DNA from: an uncultured euryarchaeote | GTDB taxonomy: Archaea > Thermoplasmatota > Poseidoniia > Poseidoniales > Poseidoniaceae | DNA: 24,273 nucleotides | Assembly: GCA_937881505.1 (NCBI GenBank) | Contig: CALGEM010000263.1 | Coordinates: forward strand, 1 to 24,273 | Direction of reading: 5' to 3' | In this document: positions 3,455 through 23,219 of the stretch, one piece after another | How positions within the stretch are numbered: the first letter of the stretch is position 1 | How the letters are laid out: each line of letters starts with the position of its first letter | Notes under the pieces: model-generated | The model's input: the letters and a program-made list of their open reading frames with translations, nothing else | Database searches by the model: none | Told to the model about the DNA's origin: nothing | Position numbers and translations under genes: made by a program

Positions 3455-4165
3455 TCAATTTAACGATGCTTCCATGCGCTTGTACCACGCCATGCCGTTG
3501 GCATGGTCGGCCAGTTGTTCGAATTGTGGATAGGGGGAAACGGAACGCATGTAGCCGAACGCAGCAAAGTCAACCAGGTCCGGTGAATCGCCTCCAAAGA
3601 ACGGCTTTCCCTCGTGAGCATCGGTGAATTCCGTCAACAGGTCGTGCCAGAGTTGCTTGGGTTTTCGGCCGTCGTTCTTGACTCGCTTTCGAGCGATGAT
3701 GCCCCACATGATGGGGAAGCCTGCCCAGGCGTAGAGTCGCTTGGAAATGAAGCCAAAATTCTCAATTTTTGAGATGCGTGTGGTCGTCTTCAACGCTGAG
3801 CCAAGGCTGCCGTAGAGAATGGGCACGGTGGCCTTCGACAGGTGTGTGTCTACCCACTGCATCCAGGTGTCCTGACGGGCTTTGTCGCCTTGTTCGGCCA
3901 TTTTTCCGCCGTTGTACTTCTCGTCGATGACGCGGAGAATTGGCGTGGAGTCAACATGGTGTTGGCCTTCTTCATCGGTGAACACCGGCACCTTCCCCCA
4001 GTCACCCGTGAACGCCACGTCCTTCTTGATGCGCATCCCGTTGACGGGGACGTAGGTTGTGTCCACGTTGAGGTGCTCAAGCAAGCCGCGTACTTTCCAG
4101 CAGAACGGGCAGGAATAGAGGAGGTGCAAGGTGGGGGTTTGACCCATGGTCTGCCCTGCAGGCAT
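3455..4165 (-). CDS. Glutathione S-transferase/glutaredoxin-fold protein, prostaglandin E synthase 2 (mPGES-2)-like
   Basis: [14 protein letters not shown] (CPFC), WGKVPV (cis-Pro), VDSTPI, and C-terminal [19 protein letters not shown]-capping motif. Start is uncertain: TTG 4177, ATG 4165 or ATG 4147. Confidence 0.85.
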
Positions 4166-4173
4166 GACCTTCT

Positions 4174-4518
4174 TCAAGCCTCGTTCTCTTCATCAAGGCC
4201 TGGTTTCCATCCCGCTTTCCAAAAACTGAGGTCGTCCAACCAACCCAGCCATTCTTTGTCGGTGCAGTTTAGCAAACGGAATGCACGGCCTTCCAATCCT
4301 TCTCGAAGCGAAGGCGCCATGTCACCCCTGTCCATGGCTTCTTTCCATTCCACCTGCATGTGGCGAATACGACGGCGGGCTTCTTCTGGCTGGTCAAAAT
4401 TCATCTCGCACGCATCACGCAGTTCCGCCAACCATGTGCGCGTGTCTTTCAGAATCGGGTCGTTGCTGTTGGAGGTTTTCTTGGCCTTTTTCCCAAACGG
4501 CCACCAGCCCATGAACAT
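4174..4518 (-). CDS. Hypothetical Trp-rich helical protein
   Basis: Fills the gap between the GST gene and rlmH. Its stop (4174-4176) lies just upstream of the GST start, suggesting an operon. Start is uncertain: 4551, 4539, 4518 or 4512. Confidence 0.7.
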
Positions 4519-4591
4519 CGGTTGTTGTCGTTGGTTCATGGTCTTGTCCATGCGCCAACGAATTCAAGAGGCGGCTTTGCGAGAGCAGTTC

Positions 4592-5026
4592 ATGGCCCGG
4601 TTGACCGTCCACACGCATGGCGTTCCCAAAGAAAAGGCGATGAAACACCTCATCGAGATGTACGGTGAGCGACTCAAAGGCCGAGGTGTCAGCGTTGAGC
4701 ATCACGCTGCAAAGATGGACGCTACCGCCTACGCTGAACGTTTGCTCTCCAAGCGGGGGCGTTTGATTCTCCTCGACGAAGCAGGTGTGCAAGAACCCTC
4801 ACTGGCCTTTGCAGCCCGATACGAAACGTGGCAGTTGGGCAGCGAGGCGGTTCATCTTGCCTTGGGTCCTGCCGAAGGTTGGCCTGCTCATGCAGGGCTG
4901 GAAGCTTTGGAGCGACTTTCCCTCTCTTCCATGACCTTCCCTCATGAATTGGCTGCGGTGATGCTGGTTGAACAACTCTACAGAGCCAGCGAGGTCCAGC
5001 GCGGTTCGGGATATCACAAAGCATGA
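4592..5026 (+). CDS. rlmH: 23S rRNA (pseudouridine1915-N3)-methyltransferase RlmH-like SPOUT protein
   Basis: The last 144 aa of track ORF 3842..5026 carry [16 protein letters not shown] and [24 protein letters not shown]...GSGYHK, the RlmH SPOUT motifs. In-frame ATG at 4592. Confidence 0.88.
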
Positions 5027-5052: not shown

Positions 5053-5826
5053 ATGGATGCGATGTTTCTGGACGAAACTTCGGGAAAATGGCTTGCCCTG
5101 GCCGTTCTCGCGGTCGTTTCCACTTCGCTCATCGCAGGCAGTCGCCACCAACCCTTCCCCGAAATCTCCGGCCGTTTCGGCTGGATTTTAGCGAGTATCA
5201 CGGGGCTTCTCGCTTTGGGTGAATCCGCTCCTCGCCCAATGTCCTTGACCGCGTTGCTCATTGTGGTGTTGGGCTTGGGCAGTTATGGCGTGCTCGTCGG
5301 GGTGCATCACATGGTTCGCACACGCCGGGACGTGTTCATCGCTCCCATGTCCGGTTTTGTGTTTTGCACCGGTGCGGGCGGGTTGATGGTCATGACATGG
5401 CCGGACTTGAACACGCTTGAACAGTGGGCTGGTTTTCTCCTGCTGGTGCTTCTGGGTGGCGGCCAAACTTGGATGGTGTTTCGAGGTCTGCTCATTGGTC
5501 GTCTTCCCCTTGCATGGAGCCAAGCCGGCATGGTCGCCCTCCAACGCCGTCAACTCCACGGCCCGCACGGGGCCATCTCTTGCTTTGAGCGAGGCTGGGA
5601 CGCTGACGAAGAACACCTCAACCCGATGGCGTACATCGCTTTGCATCGCATTCACGTATACCTTGACCAGCCTAAGGAGGCACGTCGGTGGCTGGAAGCC
5701 TTCGAAGACGCTGGTGGTGAGGCAGCGGTTGCACCCGAATGGATCGGTGCCATTCATGAAGCCCTAACCGAAATGGGTGGTGATTTCACCTCTTTGATTC
5801 CTGTTCATGGTACGGAAGAGGGTTGA
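5053..5826 (+). CDS. Hypothetical polytopic membrane protein (about 5 TM) with a C-terminal TPR-like helical region
   Basis: Hydrophobic segments through about residue 150, then GAISCFERGW...MAYIALHRIHVYLDQPKEARRWL, which reads like a TPR helix pair. Co-oriented with rlmH, 26 nt gap. Confidence 0.7.
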   Translation: MDAMFLDETSGKWLALAVLAVVSTSLIAGSRHQPFPEISGRFGWILASITGLLALGESAPRPMSLTALLIVVLGLGSYGVLVGVHHMVRTRRDVFIAPMSGFVFCTGAGGLMVMTWPDLNTLEQWAGFLLLVLLGGGQTWMVFRGLLIGRLPLAWSQAGMVALQRRQLHGPHGAISCFERGWDADEEHLNPMAYIALHRIHVYLDQPKEARRWLEAFEDAGGEAAVAPEWIGAIHEALTEMGGDFTSLIPVHGTEEG

Positions 5827-7989: not shown

Positions 7990-8979
7990 ATGGGCATTCA
8001 TCCGTTGAGCGTTGAGGAGGTGCCCCCGTACAATCGCATCGTCGCCGATTCTGACATGGACGGTCTGTTCGGAGCAGCTGTGCTCAAGGCCTTTCGCCCC
8101 GATGCGGTCGTAACCTTCACCCACGCCGCTGCACTGCGAGCGGGACTGGTCGACGAGGTTATCGGTCGAGACACGGTGCTTGTCGATTTGCCATTTCACC
8201 CGGCCTGCGGTTGGTTTGTTGATCATCACTTGACCAACCGACCAGACGATACCGAGGCTCAGAAGTTCAAAGCGGATGGTGGCACTCAACACTGGGAAGC
8301 CACACCATCAGCAGCACGGCTGGCGTACGAATTGCTTGCAGAAATCACCGATATGGACCACTTGGCGCCGATGATGCCAGTTGTCGACGCCTTGGATTCT
8401 GGTGGCATCAGCAAGGAAGATTTTCTCGCCGACGGCCCGTTGTTGCAACTTGCACGAACGTGCACGTCTCGCGACCCCGAGTACATGCTGCATCTGGTGA
8501 ATTTGCTGGCCAACGGCGCCTCCTTTGAGGTCCTGCTCGCCGACCCCATCGTCCATGCTCGGTGCCAACAAGCCGCTGCTGAACGGGCGGCTGCTCAAAG
8601 CCATGTGGAAGAGAACACCACGGTCCACGACCGTTTGGCCGTGTGTCGGATGGATGAAACATCCCTGCGAAGCAACGGCTACTTGGTCACCGCATGGGTT
8701 GGGGAAGCGGCCGATGCGTGCTGTATCGTTCACGGCTATGCTGATGGTCACCTAGAGACCCCCGACCGCCCACCGCTCGGGGCCAGTTTCTACGCCAACT
8801 CCTTCCTGCCTGGCGGGCAAGGACGTTACGACCTGTCCAGAATGGCCACGTCGTTGGACCCCACGGGAGGCGGCCATGCCAACGCTTGTGGCTGCAGAAT
8901 TCAACCACCGGGACTTGAGGCCAACATGGAGCATTGGCTATCGATGTGGGCCAACCGGGATGTTGTGCTGAAGCTCTGA
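7990..8979 (+). CDS. DHH/DHHA1 family phosphoesterase (exopolyphosphatase/nanoRNase-like)
   Basis: DSDMDG (motif I), LVDLP (motif II), FVDHH (DHH motif), TPSAARL, and C-terminal GGGHANACG (DHHA1). Divergent from the NUDIX gene. Confidence 0.85.
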   Translation: MGIHPLSVEEVPPYNRIVADSDMDGLFGAAVLKAFRPDAVVTFTHAAALRAGLVDEVIGRDTVLVDLPFHPACGWFVDHHLTNRPDDTEAQKFKADGGTQHWEATPSAARLAYELLAEITDMDHLAPMMPVVDALDSGGISKEDFLADGPLLQLARTCTSRDPEYMLHLVNLLANGASFEVLLADPIVHARCQQAAAERAAAQSHVEENTTVHDRLAVCRMDETSLRSNGYLVTAWVGEAADACCIVHGYADGHLETPDRPPLGASFYANSFLPGGQGRYDLSRMATSLDPTGGGHANACGCRIQPPGLEANMEHWLSMWANRDVVLKL

Positions 8980-9268: not shown

Positions 9269-11629
9269 TCACTCTTGCTCGTTTTCGACCGTTGAAGCGG
9301 CGATGGCGATGGGTTCTGGGGCCAAAGCAGGGGTAGGTTGAGCAGCACGCATGAAGGCCGGTGCCCACCAATTCCATTTGCCCATGAGCCGCATGGTTGA
9401 CGGCACCACCAGGGCGCGTACGAGGGTTGCATCGATGAGGATGGCCAGCGCCAAGCCCAACCCAATCTGTTTCAGGATGATAACCGACGACAGGCCGAAA
9501 GCGCTGAACACCACGACCATGATGGCGGCCGCTCCGGTGATCAGCCCCCCCGTCTTTTGCAGGCCGTTGGCCACGGCGAGGGTGTTGTCGCCGGTTCGCT
9601 CCCATTCCTCGTGAATTCTTGAGAGCATCAGCACCTCGTAATCCATTGACAACCCGAACACGATGCAGAACATGATGACGGGATTGCCCGAATCAATGGG
9701 TTGGGCGGTGAAGTTGAGCAGGGATTCACCGTAGCCCCATTGGAAAACCCACACCAGCATGCCGAAGGAGGCTGAAATGGAGAGGATGTTCATGGCGATG
9801 GCTTTGATGGGTATGATGACCGAGCGAACCTGAAGGAAGATCAGCACCATGGTGGCGATGAGAATGAACGCCAGTGCTCGTGGCAGATTATCGGCGATGG
9901 CATCGAGGTTATCGGCATTGTAAGCGGCGAACCCTGCGACCAATAACCGGTCGTTCTCGCCGCTGAGGTCGTCGAGGAAGCTCGCTCTGTCATCCCGAAT
10001 TTCTTCCACAACTTTGCGAGAGTCAACGTTGGTTTGGGCGCCAATGAGTTGGACCGACATCATCGTCGCATCCTCGCCGACGAAGGCCGCTCGCAGGCTT
10101 TCGCGCACGGCGACCTGTTCGGGTGGTAGGGCTTCGTCGGGGGCAGCCCAGAATTGCACCACCTCATCAGCGCTCATTCCCGGTGAGGGCAAGCCCACAC
10201 CGATACCACCCGAGACCCGTGAATCGTTCAACAGGTCTGACAGGTAGGCATGTTGTGCTCGGAGGTTGTCGGCCGAGAGTGGGTCTGCACCGTCGGTGTC
10301 GATGACGAGGAAAATGGAGTTCGCAGCCTGGTCGGGCCACTGTTCGTCAATCAATTCCATGCCTTGGCGAGATTCGTCATCGGGGGGAAGTGCCTTCCAC
10401 GAGGAGAGCGAGAACTCAGCGTAGGCGAACGGTAAACCGGCACCGATGAGCAACACCAGCGTTGGAATGAGCACGGCCCACGGGCGGTCCATGACGCGCT
10501 TGGCGATGCGAGCCCACACACCGTCTTCTTTGGCGCTCATGTCGAGGGCGAAGGGAATGTTTCCTTTGTTGACACGTGGGCCCAACCACGCCATCACGGC
10601 GGGGAGGACGATGGTGGAATAGACCATGGCGATGGTCACCGCAATGGTGCCGCCAATTCCCAACGATGGGAGGGAGGTGTTGGTGAAAAAGAGCATGCCC
10701 ATGAGGCCGATGGCGACCGTGATACCCGAGTAAAACACGGCCTTTCCAGCCGTTGCACAGCTCATCGCCGTCGCCGTCCGGACGTCGTGGCCTCGCGCCA
10801 ATTCCTCACGGAACCTGTTCACGAGGAAGAGCGAGTAGTCAATGGAGACACCGATGCCGATGAGCGAGATGATGTTCGTGGCGTAGACGGTCACATCGGT
10901 TACGTTGGAGAGCCAAATCGTCATGCCGATGGCGGCCAGCACGGTTCCCACGCCAACGCCGACTGGGAGCAGGGCGGCGACGATGGAGCCAAACACAATG
11001 CCGAGAATGAGGATGGAGAGGGGTCCTGAGACCAATTCAGCCTTGATGAGGTCGTTCTTGATGCGGTCGTCAAATGTCCAGTCAACGGCGATGCCGTCAG
11101 TCATCCATGCTTCAAAATCACCGCCGATTGTGAGGGAATCGTGGAGGTCATTGAGCAGTGATTTTGCCTCTTTTCGATCGGTGGCGAAGGTGACCTTGTT
11201 GATGGCGTAGGTGCCATCATCATCCACCGCCACCACATCGTTTCTGTCCACCTCGGCGACGTCCCAGGAATACTCGATGGTGACTTTGCTGTGCGACGCA
11301 AAGGAAGCCAACGCTTCCTCAACGGCCGTTCTCCACTGCTCGCTGCTATCGTTGAGGGTTGGATGGAAGACCAGATAACGGAAGGATTGGCCGCCTTCAT
11401 CGCCGTCGCTGGCAAAGCGTTCCGAAATCAACCGACCTGCGTTCACCGATTCAACGTCGTCTTCGCCAAAGCCTTCCGCCCAATCGGCTCCCATGGACAT
11501 GAGTCCCGTCATGAGAATGCAGGAGACCAAACCAAAAGCCATCATCACTCTCCGGTGGTCGTGGATGAACAATCCGAGTTTGAAAAACGCCCGATTTTTC
11601 AGAACCTCGGGGTCGGTGGCGCCCTCCAT
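9269..11629 (-). CDS. MMPL family (RND superfamily) transporter
   Basis: Two repeats of TM1 + extracellular domain + 5 TM. Motifs GIGVSIDYSLFLVNRFREEL, TAGKAVFYSGITV, FGLSMDYEVLMLSRIHEE, TGGLITGAAAIM, DATLVRALVVPSTMRLMGKWNWWAP. Start trimmed to ATG 11629. Confidence 0.92.
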   Translation of the reverse strand: MEGATDPEVLKNRAFFKLGLFIHDHRRVMMAFGLVSCILMTGLMSMGADWAEGFGEDDVESVNAGRLISERFASDGDEGGQSFRYLVFHPTLNDSSEQWRTAVEEALASFASHSKVTIEYSWDVAEVDRNDVVAVDDDGTYAINKVTFATDRKEAKSLLNDLHDSLTIGGDFEAWMTDGIAVDWTFDDRIKNDLIKAELVSGPLSILILGIVFGSIVAALLPVGVGVGTVLAAIGMTIWLSNVTDVTVYATNIISLIGIGVSIDYSLFLVNRFREELARGHDVRTATAMSCATAGKAVFYSGITVAIGLMGMLFFTNTSLPSLGIGGTIAVTIAMVYSTIVLPAVMAWLGPRVNKGNIPFALDMSAKEDGVWARIAKRVMDRPWAVLIPTLVLLIGAGLPFAYAEFSLSSWKALPPDDESRQGMELIDEQWPDQAANSIFLVIDTDGADPLSADNLRAQHAYLSDLLNDSRVSGGIGVGLPSPGMSADEVVQFWAAPDEALPPEQVAVRESLRAAFVGEDATMMSVQLIGAQTNVDSRKVVEEIRDDRASFLDDLSGENDRLLVAGFAAYNADNLDAIADNLPRALAFILIATMVLIFLQVRSVIIPIKAIAMNILSISASFGMLVWVFQWGYGESLLNFTAQPIDSGNPVIMFCIVFGLSMDYEVLMLSRIHEEWERTGDNTLAVANGLQKTGGLITGAAAIMVVVFSAFGLSSVIILKQIGLGLALAILIDATLVRALVVPSTMRLMGKWNWWAPAFMRAAQPTPALAPEPIAIAASTVENEQE

Positions 11630-11752
11630 GAATCGCACCGAAAAAAACGGTGTATTTGAATCGGCGTCTTGGGGCTCAACACCAGGTGTTGGCCAAATCA
11701 CCGGGGTAGAGGGTGAGTCACGTTCATGAACCGACCGATGTTTTCCACGCTC

Positions 11753-12268
11753 ATGAACCTCAAGGACCACATCCGGGGTGTTCCAGATTTTCCAATTGAA
11801 GGCATTTTGTTCTACGATATCGCCACCCTTCTACGGGAACCAACGGCTATGGCGTATTGTTTGGACCAATTCGAAGCAGCGATGGCGGCGTGGCAACCGG
11901 ACGTTCTTGCCGGCATCGAAAGTCGCGGTTTTCTGTTTGCTGCGCCCCTCGCTCAGCGGATGGGACTTCCGATGATGATGATACGAAAAGCAGGTAAATT
12001 ACCCGGTCCAACAAATTCGTTGACTTATGATTTGGAATATGGTACGGACACCATTGAAATTCAAGCTGATGCATTGTCCGAAGGCCAACGGGTCGTGATA
12101 CTTGATGACCTGCTGGCGACGGGAGGAACGCTTGCCGCCTCTGTGGAACTGTGCCGTCAATCAGGTGCCGAAGTTGCGGGGTGCGCCCTTGTCGTTGAAC
12201 TGTCCTTCCTCAACGGCCGCGAGGCTGTGGATGCTCCGCTCATCACTCTGGTGGATTACGAGTCTTGA
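11753..12268 (+). CDS. apt: Adenine phosphoribosyltransferase
   Basis: IRGVPDFPIEGILFYDI, GIESRGF, IRKAGKLPG, YDLEYGTD and the PRPP-binding motif RVVILDDLLATGGT. Alternative starts at 11726 and 11738. Confidence 0.95.
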   Translation: MNLKDHIRGVPDFPIEGILFYDIATLLREPTAMAYCLDQFEAAMAAWQPDVLAGIESRGFLFAAPLAQRMGLPMMMIRKAGKLPGPTNSLTYDLEYGTDTIEIQADALSEGQRVVILDDLLATGGTLAASVELCRQSGAEVAGCALVVELSFLNGREAVDAPLITLVDYES

Positions 12269-12317
12269 CAGATCGTTAAAAGTCTCTTTTTGGGGGTTTT
12301 TAAGCCGTTTTGGCACC

Positions 12318-12367
12318 CGAATTATATTAACCCCTCCATGAGAAGAGGTTACTAACCCTATAGGAGA
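12318..12367 (+). promoter_or_regulatory. TATA-like box and Shine-Dalgarno site for the NCS2 permease
   Basis: cga-attatattaa at 12318-12330 within an AT-rich spacer. AGGAGA at 12362-12367 lies upstream of ATG 12369/12375; the spacing fits 12375 better. Confidence 0.55.
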
Positions 12368-12368
12368 T

Positions 12369-13838
12369 ATGAACATGGGATTTGAGCAAAATATAGCGAA
12401 TTATTTCAAATTTGAAGAACGAGATGCCACCTTAAACGGTGAACTGAGAGCCGGATTAACGACCTTCCTTACGATGGCCTACATCCTGATCGTGAACCCG
12501 TCAATGTTGCACAACTTTGGTGCGACCGGTATTCCATACGACGACGCTCTCTTCGCCACGGCCATTGCTGCCTTTGTTGGCTGTGTGGTCATGGGGCTTT
12601 GGGCAAACCTTCCCTTTGCTCTGGCTCCGGGGATGGGTCTCAACGCCTACTTCACTTTCGCAGTCGTGCTCGGCATGGGGATTCCGTGGGAAATCGCCCT
12701 TGCCGCTGTTTTGGTTGAAGGTATCATCTTCGTTATCATTTCGTTGCCGCAAGTCGGTTGGCGAACCAAGATGATCAACGCCATCCCAAAGGATTTGAAG
12801 ATTGCAACGGGCGCCGGTATCGGTATGTTCCTGTCCATCATCGGTCTTCGTGAAATGGGCTGGATTCAGGACGACGGCGCCACGCTGGTCAACCTCGCCA
12901 CCACCGAAGCCTTCGGCTCGGGCGACTACGCCATTTGGCAGCATGGTGCTGTGATTTCCATGGTGGCCCTTCTGGCCATCGCCGTCATGATGGCTCGAGG
13001 CATCAAGGGAGCCATCATCTACGGTATCCTCGGTGCATCTCTGTTCGGTTGGCTTGTCGGTGCCTACGACCCCTACAACGACTTCGCTGCAGGTGGTGCA
13101 GGTTGGGCTGCTGCTGAGGCTTCTTGGCCAGATGAAATCTTTGGATTTGTCGGCATGCCAGAAGAAACGCTTGGGGCCGCCTTTGGCGCCTTTGGCGACA
13201 TCAGCGACAACCTGGCTGATTTCATGCTGGTCATGATCGCCTTCCTCTTCGTTGACATCTTTGACACGGCTGGAACCCTTTACTCCGTGGGCCGCCAAGC
13301 CGGCTACGTCAACGAGGACGATGAACTCCAGAACTCAGACGAGGCCTTCATGTCCGATGCTGCCGCAACCATCGTTGGTGCCATCACCGGTACGAGCACG
13401 ACCACCACCTACATCGAATCCGCTGCAGGTGTTGAAGAAGGCGGTAAGACCGGATTGACGGCGGTCGTCGTTGGTGTGCTGATGCTATCAGGTCTGTTCC
13501 TTTCGGGCATCTTCCAAGCCATCCCGACCTTCGCCGCAGCCTGTGCCTTGGTCATCGTTGGTGCAACCATGATGAAGCAAGCCACCGAAATCAACTGGGA
13601 CGACAAGGAAATGGTGCTCCCTGCCTTCTTGACCATGGTTTTGATGCCGTTCACCTACTCCATCGCTGACGGTATTGCTTGGGGTGTTATCTCCTACGTG
13701 GCCATCAAGTTGGGCATGGGCAAGGCCGACGAGCCAGGCCCCATCATGTACGGCATCGCCGTGTTCATGTTGATGTTCTACCTTGGCCCAGGCGACCAAT
13801 CGACCTTCGGTTGGTTGTTCAGCACCATCTTCGGATGA
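12369..13838 (+). CDS. NCS2 family nucleobase permease, AzgA/PbuG-like (adenine/guanine/hypoxanthine)
   Basis: ELRAGLTTFLTMAYILIVNP, LAPGMGLNAYF, FVDIFDTAGTL, GTSTTTTYIESAAGVEEGGKTGLT, MPFTYSIADGIAWG. About 12-13 TM. Adjacent to apt. Confidence 0.93.
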   Translation: MNMGFEQNIANYFKFEERDATLNGELRAGLTTFLTMAYILIVNPSMLHNFGATGIPYDDALFATAIAAFVGCVVMGLWANLPFALAPGMGLNAYFTFAVVLGMGIPWEIALAAVLVEGIIFVIISLPQVGWRTKMINAIPKDLKIATGAGIGMFLSIIGLREMGWIQDDGATLVNLATTEAFGSGDYAIWQHGAVISMVALLAIAVMMARGIKGAIIYGILGASLFGWLVGAYDPYNDFAAGGAGWAAAEASWPDEIFGFVGMPEETLGAAFGAFGDISDNLADFMLVMIAFLFVDIFDTAGTLYSVGRQAGYVNEDDELQNSDEAFMSDAAATIVGAITGTSTTTTYIESAAGVEEGGKTGLTAVVVGVLMLSGLFLSGIFQAIPTFAAACALVIVGATMMKQATEINWDDKEMVLPAFLTMVLMPFTYSIADGIAWGVISYVAIKLGMGKADEPGPIMYGIAVFMLMFYLGPGDQSTFGWLFSTIFG

Positions 13839-13885: not shown

Positions 13886-14356
13886 TCACATCAACACGTC
13901 GAACGTGTAGATGAAGCCAAGGAAGGCGTGAATGAACACGAGGTAGATGATGAGGTCAGCGGCCCGTCCGTGCTTGAGTTTGGCCACAGCGAAGGATTCT
14001 CCAGCCTCCCGCTGTGTTCGAGCCTGTTTGCCCAGACGCGTCATGAAGACCATCAAACCAAAGCCGACCGGGCCCATGAAGCCGTGAAGGGATTGTGGGA
14101 CCATTGAGGTAAGGACTCCTTCACCGGCGTACCAGCCGGTGAAACCTCGTGCGACAAACGCCACGAGGATGACCAGGCCGGTCGCCCACAGGAGGCGTTC
14201 CCCGTTGGTTTCGTGGCGGGCCAAGTGAAGCGCTCGCTCCTCGCCTTTGAGTTCGTAGGACTTCTTTCGCCAAGCGTATTGCCACCACATCCAGACCACC
14301 AAAGCGCTTGCAAGAAGCGGGTGGAGGAGCAGAGCGACGGTGGGCACAAGTTCCAT
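13886..14356 (-). CDS. 4-TM membrane protein with a cytochrome b561-like His pattern (DUF4079-like)
   Basis: H12 (LHPLL), H48, H91 (SLHGFMG, compare b561 SLHSWxG) and H129, plus H143, distributed over four hydrophobic helices. Confidence 0.65.
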   Translation of the reverse strand: MELVPTVALLLHPLLASALVVWMWWQYAWRKKSYELKGEERALHLARHETNGERLLWATGLVILVAFVARGFTGWYAGEGVLTSMVPQSLHGFMGPVGFGLMVFMTRLGKQARTQREAGESFAVAKLKHGRAADLIIYLVFIHAFLGFIYTFDVLM

Positions 14357-14483
14357 CTTGACTCAACGAAGGCGAAAGGTCTCGGGTTCATGGAGGTATG
14401 CCTCTTCCCTCTAAATTGGGCAAACCAGTCCATCGGTGGGTTGAAAGGGCTCTCGTCGTGGGGGAAAATGAGGGGATGAAGGG

Positions 14484-17400
14484 TTGGACGAACAGTACAT
14501 GGAAACCTGTCTCAAGGCAGCGTTTTCAAAACCCAGGTCGGGTGCTGTTCGCGTTTCGATCATGAACCGTGAATCCGCATGGAAAATGCTGGAGAAACCA
14601 CTCCGTGCTCATTTGGTCATCGCTGCTCACGAACAGGAGCCACCGGCTTCCGACGACGATGAAGACGCATCTCCCCGACGACCAACGATGAATCGCCCCC
14701 GAGGTCGCATGCGCCGATCCGGTCGTCAAACAGGTCCGCCTCACATGACATGGCTTCACAAACCAAAGGAAATCATCGACGGATCTCCGTTGTCGACGGC
14801 CTATCAGTTGGCCACCTTGCTGGTTCACAAACAGCTCGACGAAGACAACTGGGACGAAGCATGGAACGCTCACGAAAACTTGCTACGAGAGACATGCATG
14901 GTCGAGGGTGTTCACCCGGTGTGGCACACCATCGGAGAAAAGACACCCCTTCTCGGCCAATTCCTCGCCTTCCCCAAGGCCAAAGCCACCAAGGTCAAGG
15001 AAACCACCGCCATGGGTACGGATTTCTTTTGGATTGACCCACGAGATAAGGACGCCATCGTCACCGTGCTGAAATTGGCCAGTGCGGGCGTGAACGACCC
15101 CGACATCAAAGTCGCCATGCAGAAGGCCACCAACCAGATTTCAGGTGGCCGTTCGCTCGATTTGGACGCCCCCTTGAACGCTCTTGAGGGCTCCATGGCC
15201 TTCATCACGGTGTTGTTGGCGCTTCATGCAGGCCACGATGTTCCTTCAGCAGCCAGAAAAGCCTGCAAGAAGGCCGATAGCGATCTTTTGGATGCGCTTG
15301 AGGATTTTGAGCACCTCGCCGCTGGAACCGTCAAGGACTGGCCATCGCTTCTCGCGCTGAACCGAGACGATTCGCTCTCGGTTGCACGACGCACCCTGGG
15401 TTGGCAACACGCCCCTGCCGAGGCCGAGGCGTGCGGCTCAAGCGAGCTTGAAGCGGGTTTGGCCTTGCTCGAGCAAGCCGGCGTCCACGAAGGACGAGAC
15501 CGTTTGACCTGGTGGCGGCTGAACGCACTTCTCAATGAAGGGAAGCAGGACGAGGCGGTGAGCGTTCTCGAAAAGCGTCGCCTCGATGCGTCTTCGGATG
15601 TTTCCGAATTGCTTCCGCTGGTCGTTTCACTTGACAGTGAACAAGCCAATGCCTGGTTGATGCGTTTCTTGGATGATGTAGACGACCAAGCGCTTTACCA
15701 CATCGTTCACGAAACGGCCTTGGCCTCTACACTCCGCCGAAAGGCGGCGCAACGTCTGTGCGATGAACAGGGTGCGATGTGGGAGGAGAGTCGCTCGGTG
15801 GCTCTGACGCTGTTGGTCGAGGAACTGGATGTCGATCGCCTGGCTCGTGTCTTCGCCGGCGACAACATGCTCTCGCTTTCTCACCCTTACATGTCGTTGC
15901 TCGTGAGCCACCTGGCTCCCGCCAGTATCGACGCCTCCTTGCGCCCTCACATCTACGCATGCCGCAGCCAAGCCATGCAGGCCATCCACGGCGCGGAGGT
16001 GCCGGAGGTGCTGAGCCCTCTCGCCCTGCACTTGCTTCTCCTGATGGAAGGTATCTACAAGGAAACGCCAGAGGTGGCTGAAGTGCTTCCAACCAAAGCT
16101 CTCCAAGCCTTCTCACCCATCAGCCGAGCGTTGACCAGCGATGGCGTGGTCAGCGCCACCCACGTTCGCAACATGGGTGCCAGTTTGGATGAACTTGACC
16201 TCTCCACCATTGAGCGACGTTTGTTTGATGTCATGCTCTTGACCTTGACGATGAACCGACATCTTCAGGCGTTCAACATCGGCATGGCCAAGGCCGACGA
16301 TATCAACGAACTGGACCAACTCTTGGACAACTCCACCCTCCCTCTTCGCCTGATTCAATCCTTTTCCATTCTCATGGTTGAACACGACCTGGGCCTTCCA
16401 AATTTGGTCGCTTGGTACCAAAAGAACGACCCACTATCGCCCTGGGCACCGCTTGCTCGAGCAGCTCACTTTGCTGCCGATGGTGATGAGTTGAATTCTG
16501 CACGAGAATACTCACGGGCGGCTGAATTGTTCAACAAGCACCGGAAAACTGGCGGTGAATCAACCGATTGGGCTTCTGAGAGTGAAGACAACGACTTCGC
16601 TCTCTCGTTGCCGTTGATGCTGTATCGCAAATCCCTCATCCACTATGCGCACGCCACCTCATGGGCCGAGGCCGTAGAATTGCTGGAGCGCGTCCCCTCA
16701 CTGAAAACGGCCATCACTGAGCGCTTCAAACTCTACTTGCGAGTCTGCCACATGGCTGGAAAAGACACCAACGCCGCCGCTCGTTTGGTCCGAAAGCACG
16801 TCCAGCAGCGGAAGACCGTCCTCGAAGAAGACGTTGAAGGCAACATGGTGGAGAAGACCCGAACCACCTACAACGAAGAGGAACTCGACCTGCTGCGCAA
16901 TTATCCGTTTGAGCAAGCCCACCTTCTTCCGCCCGAACCCTTCCTCGGTCGAGTTACGGCTGCCTCAACCCATATCAGTCGTGACCTTCGTCGCTCAAGA
17001 ACCCAATACGAGCACCAGTTCAGGCAAGCCATGCAAGGAAGTTCACCTTCCATGGAGGAGATTTACGAGATTGCCAAGAACGCAGCAGAAGAAGGTGCCT
17101 TTGAGGGCTTGATGTACCTCGAGCGGGCGCAGAACTCCAACAAATTCTCCATCACGGCGCGCAACCGTCTCGCTGGCGTTGAGCAGTCCTTGTTCTCGCA
17201 GTACAAAGACGACATTCCAACCTCAAAGCGTCGGTTTTTGCACAACCTCTCTCTAACGCCCCTGGTTATCGTTGACACCAATGTCCTCGTCGATGCGCTT
17301 GTGGAACGCATGTACCAGCACATGAATTTGGTGCTTGAAACCAATGTGAACATCATCGGTGCCAACCAGTTCCATCGGATTCTGCTCCATCATGCCCAAG

Positions 17401-17942
17401 CAAAGCGTTTGGTGATGATGATCCCGGAGGACGTCCGAGGTGAACTCAAGCAGTTTGCCAAGGACCAGCGCTTGCTGCCTCGTTTCAAGGGCGCCATGGT
17501 CGATGCCTCCACCCTTGAAGAGACGCTCAGCGAGAAGGTGATGTTGAAACTCGTGGACGAGGTGCTTTCGGAATACAGCACGTGGAGTCCAAGCGCCGAT
17601 ATGTTGGCGGATGTTCCCAGCGATTCAGACGGACTCAACGCGTTCTTGCTGCGACATAGCGATGTGTTTGAAGAACTCAGTGAACTCAAGGGCTATCGGG
17701 GCATCACTTACCGAACCACATTGGAAGGACGGGAAATCTACCCTGAATCCACCGACCTTGACATCTACCGATTGGCCATGCACCTCGCTTCGCTCCCTCT
17801 TCCCTCCATTGGAGCGGTGTTGGTGGCGACCATGGACGGTGATTTCACCTTGGTCGATCGAGCCATCGAGGAACGCTTCGGCTTCAGCGTGGCCAAGAAC
17901 CACCGCTCACTCAAACCGTGGTTGAAGCGTCAGTCCAACTGA
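14484..17942 (+). CDS. Large alpha-helical (TPR/solenoid-like) protein with a C-terminal PIN-like ribonuclease domain
   Basis: 1152-aa ORF. The C-terminus has VIVDTNVL (D931), MIPEDVRGEL (E987), STDLDIYRLA (D1091/D1093) and LVATMDGDF (D1118/D1120), the ordered PIN acidic motifs. The upstream roughly 900 aa are Leu/Ala/Glu-rich and helical. Start is TTG 14484 or ATG 14499. Confidence 0.7.
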   Translation: MDEQYMETCLKAAFSKPRSGAVRVSIMNRESAWKMLEKPLRAHLVIAAHEQEPPASDDDEDASPRRPTMNRPRGRMRRSGRQTGPPHMTWLHKPKEIIDGSPLSTAYQLATLLVHKQLDEDNWDEAWNAHENLLRETCMVEGVHPVWHTIGEKTPLLGQFLAFPKAKATKVKETTAMGTDFFWIDPRDKDAIVTVLKLASAGVNDPDIKVAMQKATNQISGGRSLDLDAPLNALEGSMAFITVLLALHAGHDVPSAARKACKKADSDLLDALEDFEHLAAGTVKDWPSLLALNRDDSLSVARRTLGWQHAPAEAEACGSSELEAGLALLEQAGVHEGRDRLTWWRLNALLNEGKQDEAVSVLEKRRLDASSDVSELLPLVVSLDSEQANAWLMRFLDDVDDQALYHIVHETALASTLRRKAAQRLCDEQGAMWEESRSVALTLLVEELDVDRLARVFAGDNMLSLSHPYMSLLVSHLAPASIDASLRPHIYACRSQAMQAIHGAEVPEVLSPLALHLLLLMEGIYKETPEVAEVLPTKALQAFSPISRALTSDGVVSATHVRNMGASLDELDLSTIERRLFDVMLLTLTMNRHLQAFNIGMAKADDINELDQLLDNSTLPLRLIQSFSILMVEHDLGLPNLVAWYQKNDPLSPWAPLARAAHFAADGDELNSAREYSRAAELFNKHRKTGGESTDWASESEDNDFALSLPLMLYRKSLIHYAHATSWAEAVELLERVPSLKTAITERFKLYLRVCHMAGKDTNAAARLVRKHVQQRKTVLEEDVEGNMVEKTRTTYNEEELDLLRNYPFEQAHLLPPEPFLGRVTAASTHISRDLRRSRTQYEHQFRQAMQGSSPSMEEIYEIAKNAAEEGAFEGLMYLERAQNSNKFSITARNRLAGVEQSLFSQYKDDIPTSKRRFLHNLSLTPLVIVDTNVLVDALVERMYQHMNLVLETNVNIIGANQFHRILLHHAQAKRLVMMIPEDVRGELKQFAKDQRLLPRFKGAMVDASTLEETLSEKVMLKLVDEVLSEYSTWSPSADMLADVPSDSDGLNAFLLRHSDVFEELSELKGYRGITYRTTLEGREIYPESTDLDIYRLAMHLASLPLPSIGAVLVATMDGDFTLVDRAIEERFGFSVAKNHRSLKPWLKRQSN

Positions 17943-20931: not shown

Positions 20932-22083
20932 TCAGTTGACGAACTCGATTTGTCGGTTGCGAAGCGCTCGGAGTTGTCGGTTCTCGGTGGAACCGTGGAT
21001 TTGGTCGCTCTTCACGCCGGTCAGCACCAACATGACCCGGAGTTCGTCACCGAGTTCTTCTCGTACAGCGGCGCCCCAGATGATCTTTGCATTTGGTGAG
21101 ATTTGTTCTTTGATGAGCTGCGAACAGCGCTCGGCTTCACCCAAGGTCAGACTGCTTCCACCCACCACGTTGATGAGGGCACCACGAGCATCACTCATGT
21201 CCAAATCGAGGAGCGGTGAGTGCAAGGCTTCCATGGTGGCAGCGTCAGCACGACCCGGGCCCTTGGCACTGCCAAGCCCAATCATGGCCACACCAGCGCC
21301 GGAATTGACAATGGACTTCAAGTCCTCAAAGTCAAGGTTGACCATGCCGTCGGTTGTCAGCAATTCTGTGACGCCGGTGATGGACCGCACCAATAATTCA
21401 TCACCGACTCGGAACGCACTGGCGATGGGCAAGTCCTTGACGCCCTCAATTTCAAGCAAGCGTTCGTTGGGAATGACCAGGATGGTGTCGCAGTGTTCAC
21501 GAAGACGCTCCAGCCCCCATTCTGCGTTTTGCTTACGAAGGGATCCTTCGGATTTGAAGGGGTAGGTGACCACGGCGATGGTCATGGCGCCTTGGGCTTT
21601 GGCGAGTCGGGCAATGTGGCCTGCAGCCCCCGTTCCCGAACCTCCACCCATACCGGCCGTGATGATGGCGAGTTGGGTGTCGTTGGTGATGCGTCGCAAC
21701 ACGCGTTCGGATTCCAGAGCAGCGGCTTCGCCCTTGGTTGGGTCGCCACCAGCGCCTCGTCCTCGCGCTGTACGGCCGATCAGGACCTTTTCTTGAATGG
21801 GTGATTGAAGCAGAGCCTGGGCATCCGTGTTGATGGCGTACCCGGTCACGTAGGAAGACTCGAACAATTTCTCATCGAACAAGCGGTTGATGGCGTTGCA
21901 GCCTGCGCCACCGACGCCGTAAACTCGGATTCGTGGTTGAAGAGACTCGAGGAGTGCTTTCAGTTCTTCATCAGAGCCTTGGCCTGGGACCTCATCGTGT
22001 TGGACCACACGTTGCTCCTCTTCGGAGAGTTCCAGTACCCGTTCAATCAAATGGCGCATGGCCACATTTTCGATTGTGGACAT
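20932..22083 (-). CDS. ftsZ: Cell division protein FtsZ (archaeal FtsZ1-like)
   Basis: VYGVGGAGCNAINRL, INTDAQAL, GAGGDP..GEAAA, GMGGGSGTG, TYPFKSEG...R, VIPNERL, T7 loop NLDFED, IIWGA. The N-terminal SDEELKALLESL and C-terminal IEFV resemble FtsZ1. Start trimmed to ATG 22083. Confidence 0.95.
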   Translation of the reverse strand: MSTIENVAMRHLIERVLELSEEEQRVVQHDEVPGQGSDEELKALLESLQPRIRVYGVGGAGCNAINRLFDEKLFESSYVTGYAINTDAQALLQSPIQEKVLIGRTARGRGAGGDPTKGEAAALESERVLRRITNDTQLAIITAGMGGGSGTGAAGHIARLAKAQGAMTIAVVTYPFKSEGSLRKQNAEWGLERLREHCDTILVIPNERLLEIEGVKDLPIASAFRVGDELLVRSITGVTELLTTDGMVNLDFEDLKSIVNSGAGVAMIGLGSAKGPGRADAATMEALHSPLLDLDMSDARGALINVVGGSSLTLGEAERCSQLIKEQISPNAKIIWGAAVREELGDELRVMLVLTGVKSDQIHGSTENRQLRALRNRQIEFVN

Positions 22084-22148
22084 TTTCAATGTGCCGCCCT
22101 CACAGGGGCACAGGAGCCGAGTTTTCGGGGCCGTGAACGGAAGCCGAA

Positions 22149-23183
22149 TTAGTCGCGTAGACCTTCTTCGCACACCTGGTAGACGCACTCACCGTCGGGG
22201 AGGTTTGGCGAGTCGACCAGACGAGCGATTCGTCGTCCGCCTTTGGCTTTGCGCAGGTAGAGGCGGAAGGTGCTGGCGTGGGCGAGGATGTGGCCACCGA
22301 TGGGCTTGGTCGGGTCGCCCCACATGGCGTCGGGCTTGGAATGCACCTGATTGGTGACAAGCACGAGCGCGTTGTTGACATCGGCGAGTTTCTTCAAGTC
22401 CTTCAGGTGGCTGTTGAGCTTTTGCTGGCGTCGGGCGAGCATGCCTCGTCCAATGAACTCAGCACGGAAGTGGCTGGTCAAGGAGTCGACGATGATCATC
22501 TTGACGTTCAATCCCTTGCTCATTCGCTTGATTTCATCGGCCAAGAGCATTTGGTGAGCGGAGTTGTACGCACGGGCGACGTGAATGCGGGAGAGGACAT
22601 AATCCGGGTCCAATCCGTGTCCGCGGGCCATCTGTGTGATGCGCTCAGGTCGGAAGGTGTCTTCCGTGTCGATGTAGAAGACATCGCCGTCGAGGCCACC
22701 TTGGTCGACCGGGAGGGTGCAGTTCACGGCGAGTTGGTGTCCAATCTGGGTCTTTCCGCTACCGAATTCACCGTAGACTTCCACCAAAGCTTGGGTCTCG
22801 AATCCACCACCGAGGAGGTCGTCGATTGACTGTACCTTGGAGGAGAGTTTCTGAACTTCCCGGCGGCGCTCGAGGAGTGCATCACCGGAGACGAAGCCAC
22901 CGATGTTGGCCATCTTCTTGGCTGCGGCGATGATTTTGGCCGAAACCGCTTCACCGAGTTCTGCTTCTTCGGCAAGATCTGCTGGTGACATAACAGCGAG
23001 GCCCAGGAGTTCTTCAAAACCGGCTTCTCGCAACTTTTCCGCGGTCGCAGGTCCAACACCTGGGAGGTCTTCGATGGTCACTTTGACCTCTTCTTCCTCG
23101 GTCATTGGCATGACCTCTTCTTCCACCGGTGCTTCATTCTTTTCAACTTCAATGCTGACTTTTTTCTTTGATTTTGTTGGCAT
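22149..23183 (-). CDS. radA: DNA repair and recombination protein RadA
   Basis: HhH domain [15 protein letters not shown], Walker [22 protein letters not shown], Walker [36 protein letters not shown]. No intein. ATG 23183 (GTG 23198 is an alternative). Confidence 0.97.
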
Positions 23184-23219
23184 GTTCCATCCCTTCACTC
23201 CGATGGTGGTATGCTTCCC

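Follow-up and report, generated by a model that had tools for sequence, protein, structure and literature searches.

The window analysed here, a 24,273-nt stretch of DNA from an uncultured euryarchaeote of the order Poseidoniales (assembly GCA_937881505.1, contig CALGEM010000263.1, positions 1 to 24,273; 2.0 Mb source assembly, 81% complete), carries at 14484-17942 on its forward (+) strand a gene whose 1152-residue product combines a very long helical scaffold with a C-terminal PIN-like nuclease domain. The most fitting description of this solenoid-PIN protein is that of a new family, specific to its order, in the PIN-like superfamily, whose scaffold has no known kin; PIN_12, VapBC, EST1, PF20698 and PADLOC were each tried and none accommodates it. 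It probably acts as a metal-dependent endoribonuclease, resident but dispensable, with its scaffold as guide.

The starting point was a first-pass annotation of the bare sequence, which had read the gene as a helical solenoid fused to a PIN nuclease, either of SMG6/Est1-like architecture or an unrecognised RNA-surveillance or defence effector. The open reading frame list and the translation bear out the frame that it described—one uninterrupted run of 1152 codons followed by TGA—and the residues that it named were found in place, i.e. D931 (in VIVDTNVL), E987 (in IPEDVRGEL), D1091/D1093 and D1118/D1120 (in TMDGDF).

A PIN fold with a complete acidic set

Residues 925-1150 (17256..17933) form, in the structure models, a PIN fold with a complete metal-binding acidic set; structural alignment and sub-threshold Pfam matches assign this PIN-like nuclease domain to the VapC structural group. 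Residue numbers are those of the 1152-aa frame (structure-model numbers run from five residues later), conservation counts refer to 34 family members with 24-80% identity, and all features of the gene lie on the forward strand. The full-length AlphaFold model was built on these 34 diverse members and has a mean pLDDT of 84. Its best matches in the PDB are VapC2 of Rickettsia felis (3zvk_A; rmsd 3.1 Å, 134/134 residues aligned) and VapC11 of M. tuberculosis (6a7v_A; rmsd 2.8 Å, 131/135 aligned), both at Z 10.4 (VIA-align); of 48,161 representative chains in the PDB, the 23 ranked highest are PIN domains without exception. The modelled domain thus has the three-layer alpha/beta/alpha architecture with a parallel sheet that superposes on solved PIN domains. 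The same PIN ranking, at Z 9.6, was returned by a shallower, domain-only model run separately, although the two models are not fully independent, as the deeper alignment includes the sequences of the shallower one, and both are predicted rather than solved structures. With PIN domains alone at the top of both rankings, the C-terminal PIN fold proposed in the first-pass annotation is upheld. A shape search of the ESM Atlas likewise led to PIN_12 and VapC clusters, with TM values, taken by hit, of 0.64-0.65.

The suggestion that the protein had gone unrecognised holds only in part. No Pfam, NCBIfam or PADLOC family covers it; the automatic names given to fragments of the family in UniProt and AFDB, however, read ‘PIN domain-containing protein’, so the PIN domain itself was not wholly unrecognised beforehand.

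All four acidic positions expected of a PIN domain are filled, at the expected places relative to the strands of the model. The first is D931 in the triplet D931-T932-N933 (17274..17282) at the end of strand 1 (model 920-925), each residue of which is present in 34/34 members, and the second is E987 (17442..17444) in the helix after strand 2, kept in 33/34 members with a single Q. The third position opens the helix that follows strand 3, in the motif YPExxD (17745..17756), whose E1088 and D1091 are both found in 34/34. The fourth, after strand 4, is provided by D1118-G-D1120-F1121 (17835..17846), with D1118, D1120 and F1121 each at 34/34. The acidic motifs had been described as intact from the one sequence; across the family this is correct for D931, E987, D1091, D1118 and D1120 but not for D1093, the variable neighbour of D1091, which is present in 21/34 members.

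Among the PIN subfamilies, the closest hints in the sequence point to PIN_12/DUF4935 (PF16289). Sub-threshold matches to PIN-clan models occur in several members (PIN_12, PIN, PIN_3, PIN_4, PIN_2 and NYN), with PIN_12 both the best and the most frequent of them (6/34 members, at E 0.006 or worse). DUF4935/PIN_12 has been placed in the VapC group as a family of unknown function, usually monocistronic and with a long helical insert after strand 2, whose mostly bacterial proteins of about 350 aa consist of an N-terminal PIN domain followed by an alpha/beta region (Matelska et al. 2017, PMC5499597). The solenoid-PIN family shares the DTN first motif, the monocistronic gene, the shape (Atlas TM 0.64) and the insert, which here takes the form of an acidic helical insertion of 76 residues after strand 2 (residues 995-1070, 17466..17693; model helices 990-1065; pI 4.3). 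It differs in that its score stays below the one curated for PIN_12 membership and in that its PIN domain is C-terminal, behind a ~900-aa solenoid and with nothing after it, the protein ending at residue 1152.

Sequence searches of the PDB by phmmer and by profile found no PIN chain. One row alone came out as ‘significant’, namely that of the neck repeats in DC-SIGNR (3jqh, E 5e-5), and it was rejected as a repeat artefact rather than homology; the spurious match stems from 17670-17760 (residues about 1063-1092), where motifs resembling IYPE, ELxELK and ELTxLK occur.

A scaffold without recognisable relatives

A solenoid of ~830 residues (87-916, with one beta-hairpin) accounts for four fifths of the modelled protein. 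At the very N-terminus stands a basic helical cap, residues 1-48 (14484..14627), with helices at 2-43 in model numbering, an N-terminus that across the family reads M-E-x-Y-L-x-x-C-L and a calculated pI of about 10. It is followed by a linker, residues 57-83 (14652..14732), predicted to be disordered (pLDDT <50 at model residues 52-78), in which an acidic run gives way to an Arg/Gly-rich RR(G/S)GR stretch; the R/G positions are retained in 25-31 of the 34 members, and this RG-rich linker may bind RNA or a partner. The alpha-solenoid body proper, residues 87-773 (14742..16802), comprises ~35 helices in the AlphaFold model and is broken by a long beta-hairpin at residues 774-796 (16803..16871; model strands 769-777 and 783-791). 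Beyond the hairpin lies a helical pre-PIN module, residues 798-916 (16875..17231), the last three helices of which resemble tetratricopeptide repeat (TPR) units in the model: residues 834-917 match the TPR units of Bub1/BubR1 and CnoX at Z about 7. A 292-aa AFDB entry named ‘PIN domain-containing protein’ aligns to residues 835-1134.

By sequence, no such repeats could be found. Pfam detects neither a TPR nor any other family in this protein (TPR_14 reaches merely E 0.86), and a Pfam scan of the 34 full-length members gave no recurrent repeat or N-terminal family. In a Foldseek search of the PDB with the full-length model, the solenoid found only generic TPR and HEAT scaffolds (CTR9, IFT-A, Ski3 and karyopherins, all at TM ≤0.2), and in AFDB it matched TPR proteins. 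As no repeat family is detectable by sequence and the structural matches are generic, ‘TPR-like’ describes the modelled shape and assigns the protein to no family. The roughly 900 aa of TPR-like helical sequence in the first-pass annotation thus survive as an all-helical solenoid in the model, without a TPR family behind them. The whole protein, of ~130 kDa, is presumably cytoplasmic.

A resident gene of the Poseidoniales

The full protein gave no usable match to Pfam, NCBIfam or PADLOC models. Searched with a profile, 1.84 billion cluster representatives yielded just 199 matches, and each of the 150 listed is either a full-length member (1090-1170 aa) or a shorter piece that covers a portion of the profile. 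A search for outgroups, made with the C-terminal profile against a word index, recovered nothing but fragments of this family, and a literature search on PIN domains in Poseidoniales or Marine Group II and on PIN-TPR-GreA found nothing relevant.

Within the Poseidoniales, the gene is present in 138/151 genomes, with one copy in each and frames of 1120-1160 aa. One of the two large families carries it in 74/74 and 89/89 genomes, the other in 61/74 and 55/66, and in 20/22 genera the single copy occupies one and the same syntenic position. In the remaining families of the class it occurs in 1/45 genomes. This lone match outside the order (L054, G165:C42:1-2160) is an N-terminal fragment of 216 residues lying on a 36%-GC piece at the edge of a contig, and it shares 58% identity with a Thalassarchaeaceae-type protein of the second family; as evidence for presence outside the order it was set aside, the edge fragment and its identity to a second-family member indicating a probably mis-binned contig. 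On these searches, the family appears confined to the Poseidoniales (Marine Group II) and is not credibly found outside the order.

Two genera lack the gene (0/2 and 0/9 genomes, several of them >90% complete), even when searched with the C-terminal profile at E ≤1. At the syntenic site of both, the flanking genes abut, one genome keeping just 46 nt from the b561-like gene to the gene after it; the losses are clean deletions. No replacement was found at the deletion sites, where the only genes are those for an SDR, a hydrolase, a methyltransferase and a nitronate monooxygenase, nothing nuclease-like.

Gene order around the locus is conserved in both large families and runs SPOUT methyltransferase, 257-aa unknown, cobalamin adenosyltransferase, NUDIX, 329-aa unknown, b561-like, solenoid-PIN; in the family of the source genome, isocitrate dehydrogenase (IDH) comes next. 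The gene is also compositionally inconspicuous, with a GC content of 0.54-0.59 along its length versus 0.53-0.61 along the window, so the absence of a compositional shift noted at first pass is confirmed.

Selection was estimated by the Nei-Gojobori method on twelve same-genus genes, which yields rough omega values. Every region is under purifying selection, at an omega of about 0.04-0.17. The whole gene stands at 0.08, the solenoid at 0.08-0.11 and the PIN core at 0.08; the hairpin and pre-PIN helices are the most constrained part of the gene (0.04), and the PIN insert is its fastest-evolving part (0.17). The neighbouring b561-like and IDH genes have values of 0.09 and 0.03, respectively. Across genera and families, solenoid-PIN proteins share 26-40% identity, versus about 80% for IDH.

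The gene is resident and vertically inherited, not mobile, because it is single-copy, syntenic and near-universal in one order, is under purifying selection and has no PADLOC match. The first-pass annotation had likewise favoured a resident gene over a mobile defence island; a PADLOC search, which it had proposed, was run and gave 0 families at E ≤1.

Proposed function and alternatives

Characterised PIN enzymes of the VapC group (VapC, Nob1, Utp24, SMG6 and the PIN domain of Rrp44) are endoribonucleases; for the grouping itself, see PMC5499597. This known activity, together with the intact VapC-group PIN site, is the reason for reading the solenoid-PIN protein as a metal-dependent endoribonuclease. 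The PIN domain would be an active Mg2+/Mn2+-dependent endonuclease on single-stranded or structured RNA. Recognition of the substrate, or attachment of the enzyme to a conserved partner, would fall to the solenoid, the hairpin with the pre-PIN module and the RG-rich tail; the choice of substrate would then be set by the scaffold instead of by an antitoxin. Such a protein would probably serve as an accessory RNA-processing or turnover factor, adding to the standard archaeal machinery rather than replacing it. A precedent for fusing a helical-repeat RNA-recognition module to a PIN-like metallonuclease is PRORP, which joins PPR repeats to a NYN domain.

Several results weigh against this proposal. 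All matches to Pfam models of the PIN clan stay below the gathering score (best E 0.006), and the PIN_12 model, matched over its full length (1-172) to the C-terminus of a relative, scores 19.9 bits versus a cut-off of 32. An hhalign comparison of the C-terminal profile with three PIN_12 proteins gave a probability of 1.2%, from a template alignment too thin to inform, and Foldseek with the domain model against the PDB reached a best E of 0.09. The omega values suffer from a dS near saturation (1.4-1.8). The function is not essential: the gene is dispensable because it has been cleanly deleted in two genera, and the phyletic profile is thus not that of a core gene, one of the two outcomes that the first-pass annotation had envisaged. 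Finally, the expression evidence is thin, consisting of low-depth contigs, mostly from relatives, in four metatranscriptomes where DNA carry-over is possible; one exact 168-nt metatranscriptome piece lies on the gene, and no RNA run contains the exact DNA.

Two substitute roles were considered. That of Nob1 or the exosome is ruled out, as carriers and non-carriers of the solenoid-PIN gene alike have Nob1 (PIN_6) and three RNase PH genes. A replacement of RNase P by a protein-only enzyme finds no support, since RNase P RNA scores above the cut-off in 5/5 Poseidoniales genomes checked, all of them carriers and the source genome among them. The likeness to HARP (PIN_5-like) is weak (Z 5.2, with Swiss-Prot ‘RNA-free ribonuclease P’ at E 0.02-0.1) and falls behind that to VapC, and no PPR family was seen in the 34 members beyond one chance-level match.

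The protein might be an independently evolved Marine Group II scaffolded RNA-surveillance endonuclease, a functional analogue of SMG6 or of a Ski3-type scaffold, an idea that we consider unlikely as it stands. In that case, the solenoid and RG-rich tail would attach the protein to a conserved RNA machine such as the ribosome or the exosome, faulty or regulated transcripts would be cut by the PIN domain, and the two deleting genera would be natural knock-outs.

Also doubtful is a single-gene antiviral or conflict effector, in which the scaffold would sense a viral molecule and release the PIN domain to degrade RNA in a manner resembling abortive infection. A repeat sensor joined to a nuclease effector is a common defence layout, and the gene is monocistronic, evolves several times faster than IDH and has been lost in two genera. 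A protein-atlas feature search further gave a weak lead (0.78) to the bacterial PIN-TPR-GreABC conflict proteins (PF20698), which likewise combine TPR-like repeats and PIN in one large prokaryotic protein. The solenoid-PIN protein, however, matches PF20698 neither itself (E ≤1) nor in any of the 34 members (E ≤0.1), lacks a GreA/B-C domain and has the genomic behaviour of a resident gene: unlike the known anti-phage systems of PADLOC-DB 2.0, it is not patchy but sits at one site among metabolic neighbours. An NTPase switch is missing too, as no Walker A motif was found in a search of the 1152-aa protein, and the omega of all its regions is similar to that of the neighbouring membrane protein gene.

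There is a smaller chance that the protein is a structure-specific DNA nuclease of replication or repair, with a solenoid docking on DNA-handling proteins. The PIN-like superfamily does include the FEN/Exo1 5′ nucleases (PMC5499597), Exo1 is among the weak Foldseek rows, and in the family of the source genome radA lies ~4 kb downstream. Yet the best structural matches are RNases of the VapC group and not FEN-like, the Exo1 rows have TM ≤0.2, the radA neighbourhood is not kept in the second large family, and Pfam scans of this protein and the 34 members detected no helix-hairpin-helix or H3TH element.

Less probable again is a purely scaffolding protein whose PIN domain binds without catalysis, in the manner of SMG5 or Utp23. 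Several eukaryotic PIN domains are inactive, and the solenoid does make up four fifths of this protein; inactive PIN domains lose their acidic residues, however, and here five are invariant and a sixth is kept in 33/34 members, in a PIN core under purifying selection.

Descent shared with the eukaryotic SMG6/EST1-type factors of nonsense-mediated decay is very improbable, even though the order of parts is the same—a helical protein-binding region, then a C-terminal PIN domain, as in SMG6/EST1A (SMG5)—and Foldseek, run with the weaker model, ranks the SMG6 PIN domain first (E 0.09). The shared PIN fold aligns to EST1A/SMG6 at Z 6.1-7.2, versus 9.6-10.4 for VapC; EST1 and EST1_DNA_bind have no match in this protein (E ≤1) or in the 34 members (E ≤0.1), nor is there a 14-3-3-like domain; PIN_4 appears in 3/34 members at E 0.013 or worse; and the family is confined to one order of the Thermoplasmatota. 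The resemblance is best read as one of layout only, i.e. as convergence, so that the kinship raised in the first-pass annotation finds no support and its proviso of a convergent likeness stands.

No more credible is a VapC-type toxin whose antitoxin is fused or encoded elsewhere: although the closest solved structures are VapC toxins (VapBC/FitAB; 3zvk, 6a7v, 4chg and 6sd6 at Z 10.4-9.8, rmsd about 3 Å, with the whole chain aligned and the acidic positions equivalent), these are multi-copy, mobile proteins of about 130-150 aa with an adjacent co-transcribed antitoxin, whereas the solenoid-PIN protein is about eight times as large, has 12-19% identity to them and a 76-residue insert, and is encoded by a single-copy, syntenic, order-wide gene without a small antitoxin frame in either flanking gap (127 nt upstream, 74 nt downstream). 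The first-pass annotation had already noted the lack of an adjacent antitoxin and of an NTPase motif, and both absences were reproduced.

Reading frame and neighbouring genes

The gene (14484..17942) starts with TTG and is monocistronic, both neighbours being on the opposite strand. Eight nucleotides 5′ of the TTG lies a Shine-Dalgarno-like GAGGGG (14470..14475), a putative ribosome-binding site read from the sequence and kept in 11/11 same-genus loci. Across these loci the start codon is TTG in 10 and GTG in 1, and GAGGGG with its 8-nt spacer always precedes it. Most public gene calls of relatives start at an ATG five codons after the TTG, which gives 1147 aa; the D-E-x-Y between the two codons aligns to the N-terminus shared by the whole family, M-E-x-Y-L-x-x-C-L. 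Because of the conserved GAGGGG, the switch between TTG and GTG in relatives and this alignment, sequence comparison identifies TTG as the correct start, and the public gene calls are corrected accordingly.

Pfam identifies the divergent upstream neighbour as b561-like and the convergent downstream one as isocitrate dehydrogenase; RadA, FtsZ and an MMPL transporter are among the other products encoded in the window. The b561-like gene, at 13886-14356 (-), encodes 156 aa with a sub-threshold match to Ni_hydr_CYTB (E 2e-5, 24.9 bits vs a cut-off of 30.1). It lies beside the solenoid-PIN gene in most genomes, and is kept in the gene-less genomes G002 and G035; in G019, both genes are missing from this locus.

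Between the 329-aa and b561-like genes of the window, 9269-13838 is occupied by an MMPL transporter (-), a phosphoribosyltransferase (+) and a xanthine/uracil (purine) permease (+). The two flanking genes are adjacent in 6/7 other Poseidoniales loci, and the remaining one, L019, has MMPL alone between them; the three genes look like a lineage-specific insertion into a conserved block. The products of 7990-8979 (329 aa) and 5053-5826 (257 aa) have no Pfam match and are syntenic order-wide. Neither is an obligate partner of the solenoid-PIN protein, because both are present in the genera that lack it.

Further upstream, a 394-aa frame at 3842-5026 has a SPOUT (RlmH-like) methyltransferase domain that takes up only the final 140 residues, and the homologues of this frame in all other loci measure about 140-165 aa; the frame, which opens with GTG, is probably too long, with the real gene limited to about the last 430 nt. 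An 866-aa fusion of malic enzyme and phosphate acetyltransferase (PTA_PTB), in a MaeB-type layout, is encoded at 21-2621. At the other end, the ftsZ and radA frames, 20932-22188 and 22149-23198 (-), overlap by 40 nt as called from the first possible start, and the ftsZ start probably lies further downstream. Both genes are syntenic in the family of the source genome and not in the second large family.

Significance for the Poseidoniales

The Poseidoniales are among the most abundant archaea of the surface ocean and have no cultured member, which makes lineage-specific conserved genes the main clue to their cell biology. The solenoid-PIN gene is among the largest of these, and a family that had no Pfam or NCBIfam model has now been defined. 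In it, a familiar PIN catalytic module is joined to a large scaffold without detectable relatives, a layout for which, to our knowledge, eukaryotic RNA-decay factors and bacterial conflict systems provide most of the other examples. The two gene-less genera offer a natural comparison for target finding in metatranscriptomes. Should the protein indeed be an RNA-processing or surveillance factor, the targeting of substrates through a solenoid scaffold would have arisen independently in archaea.

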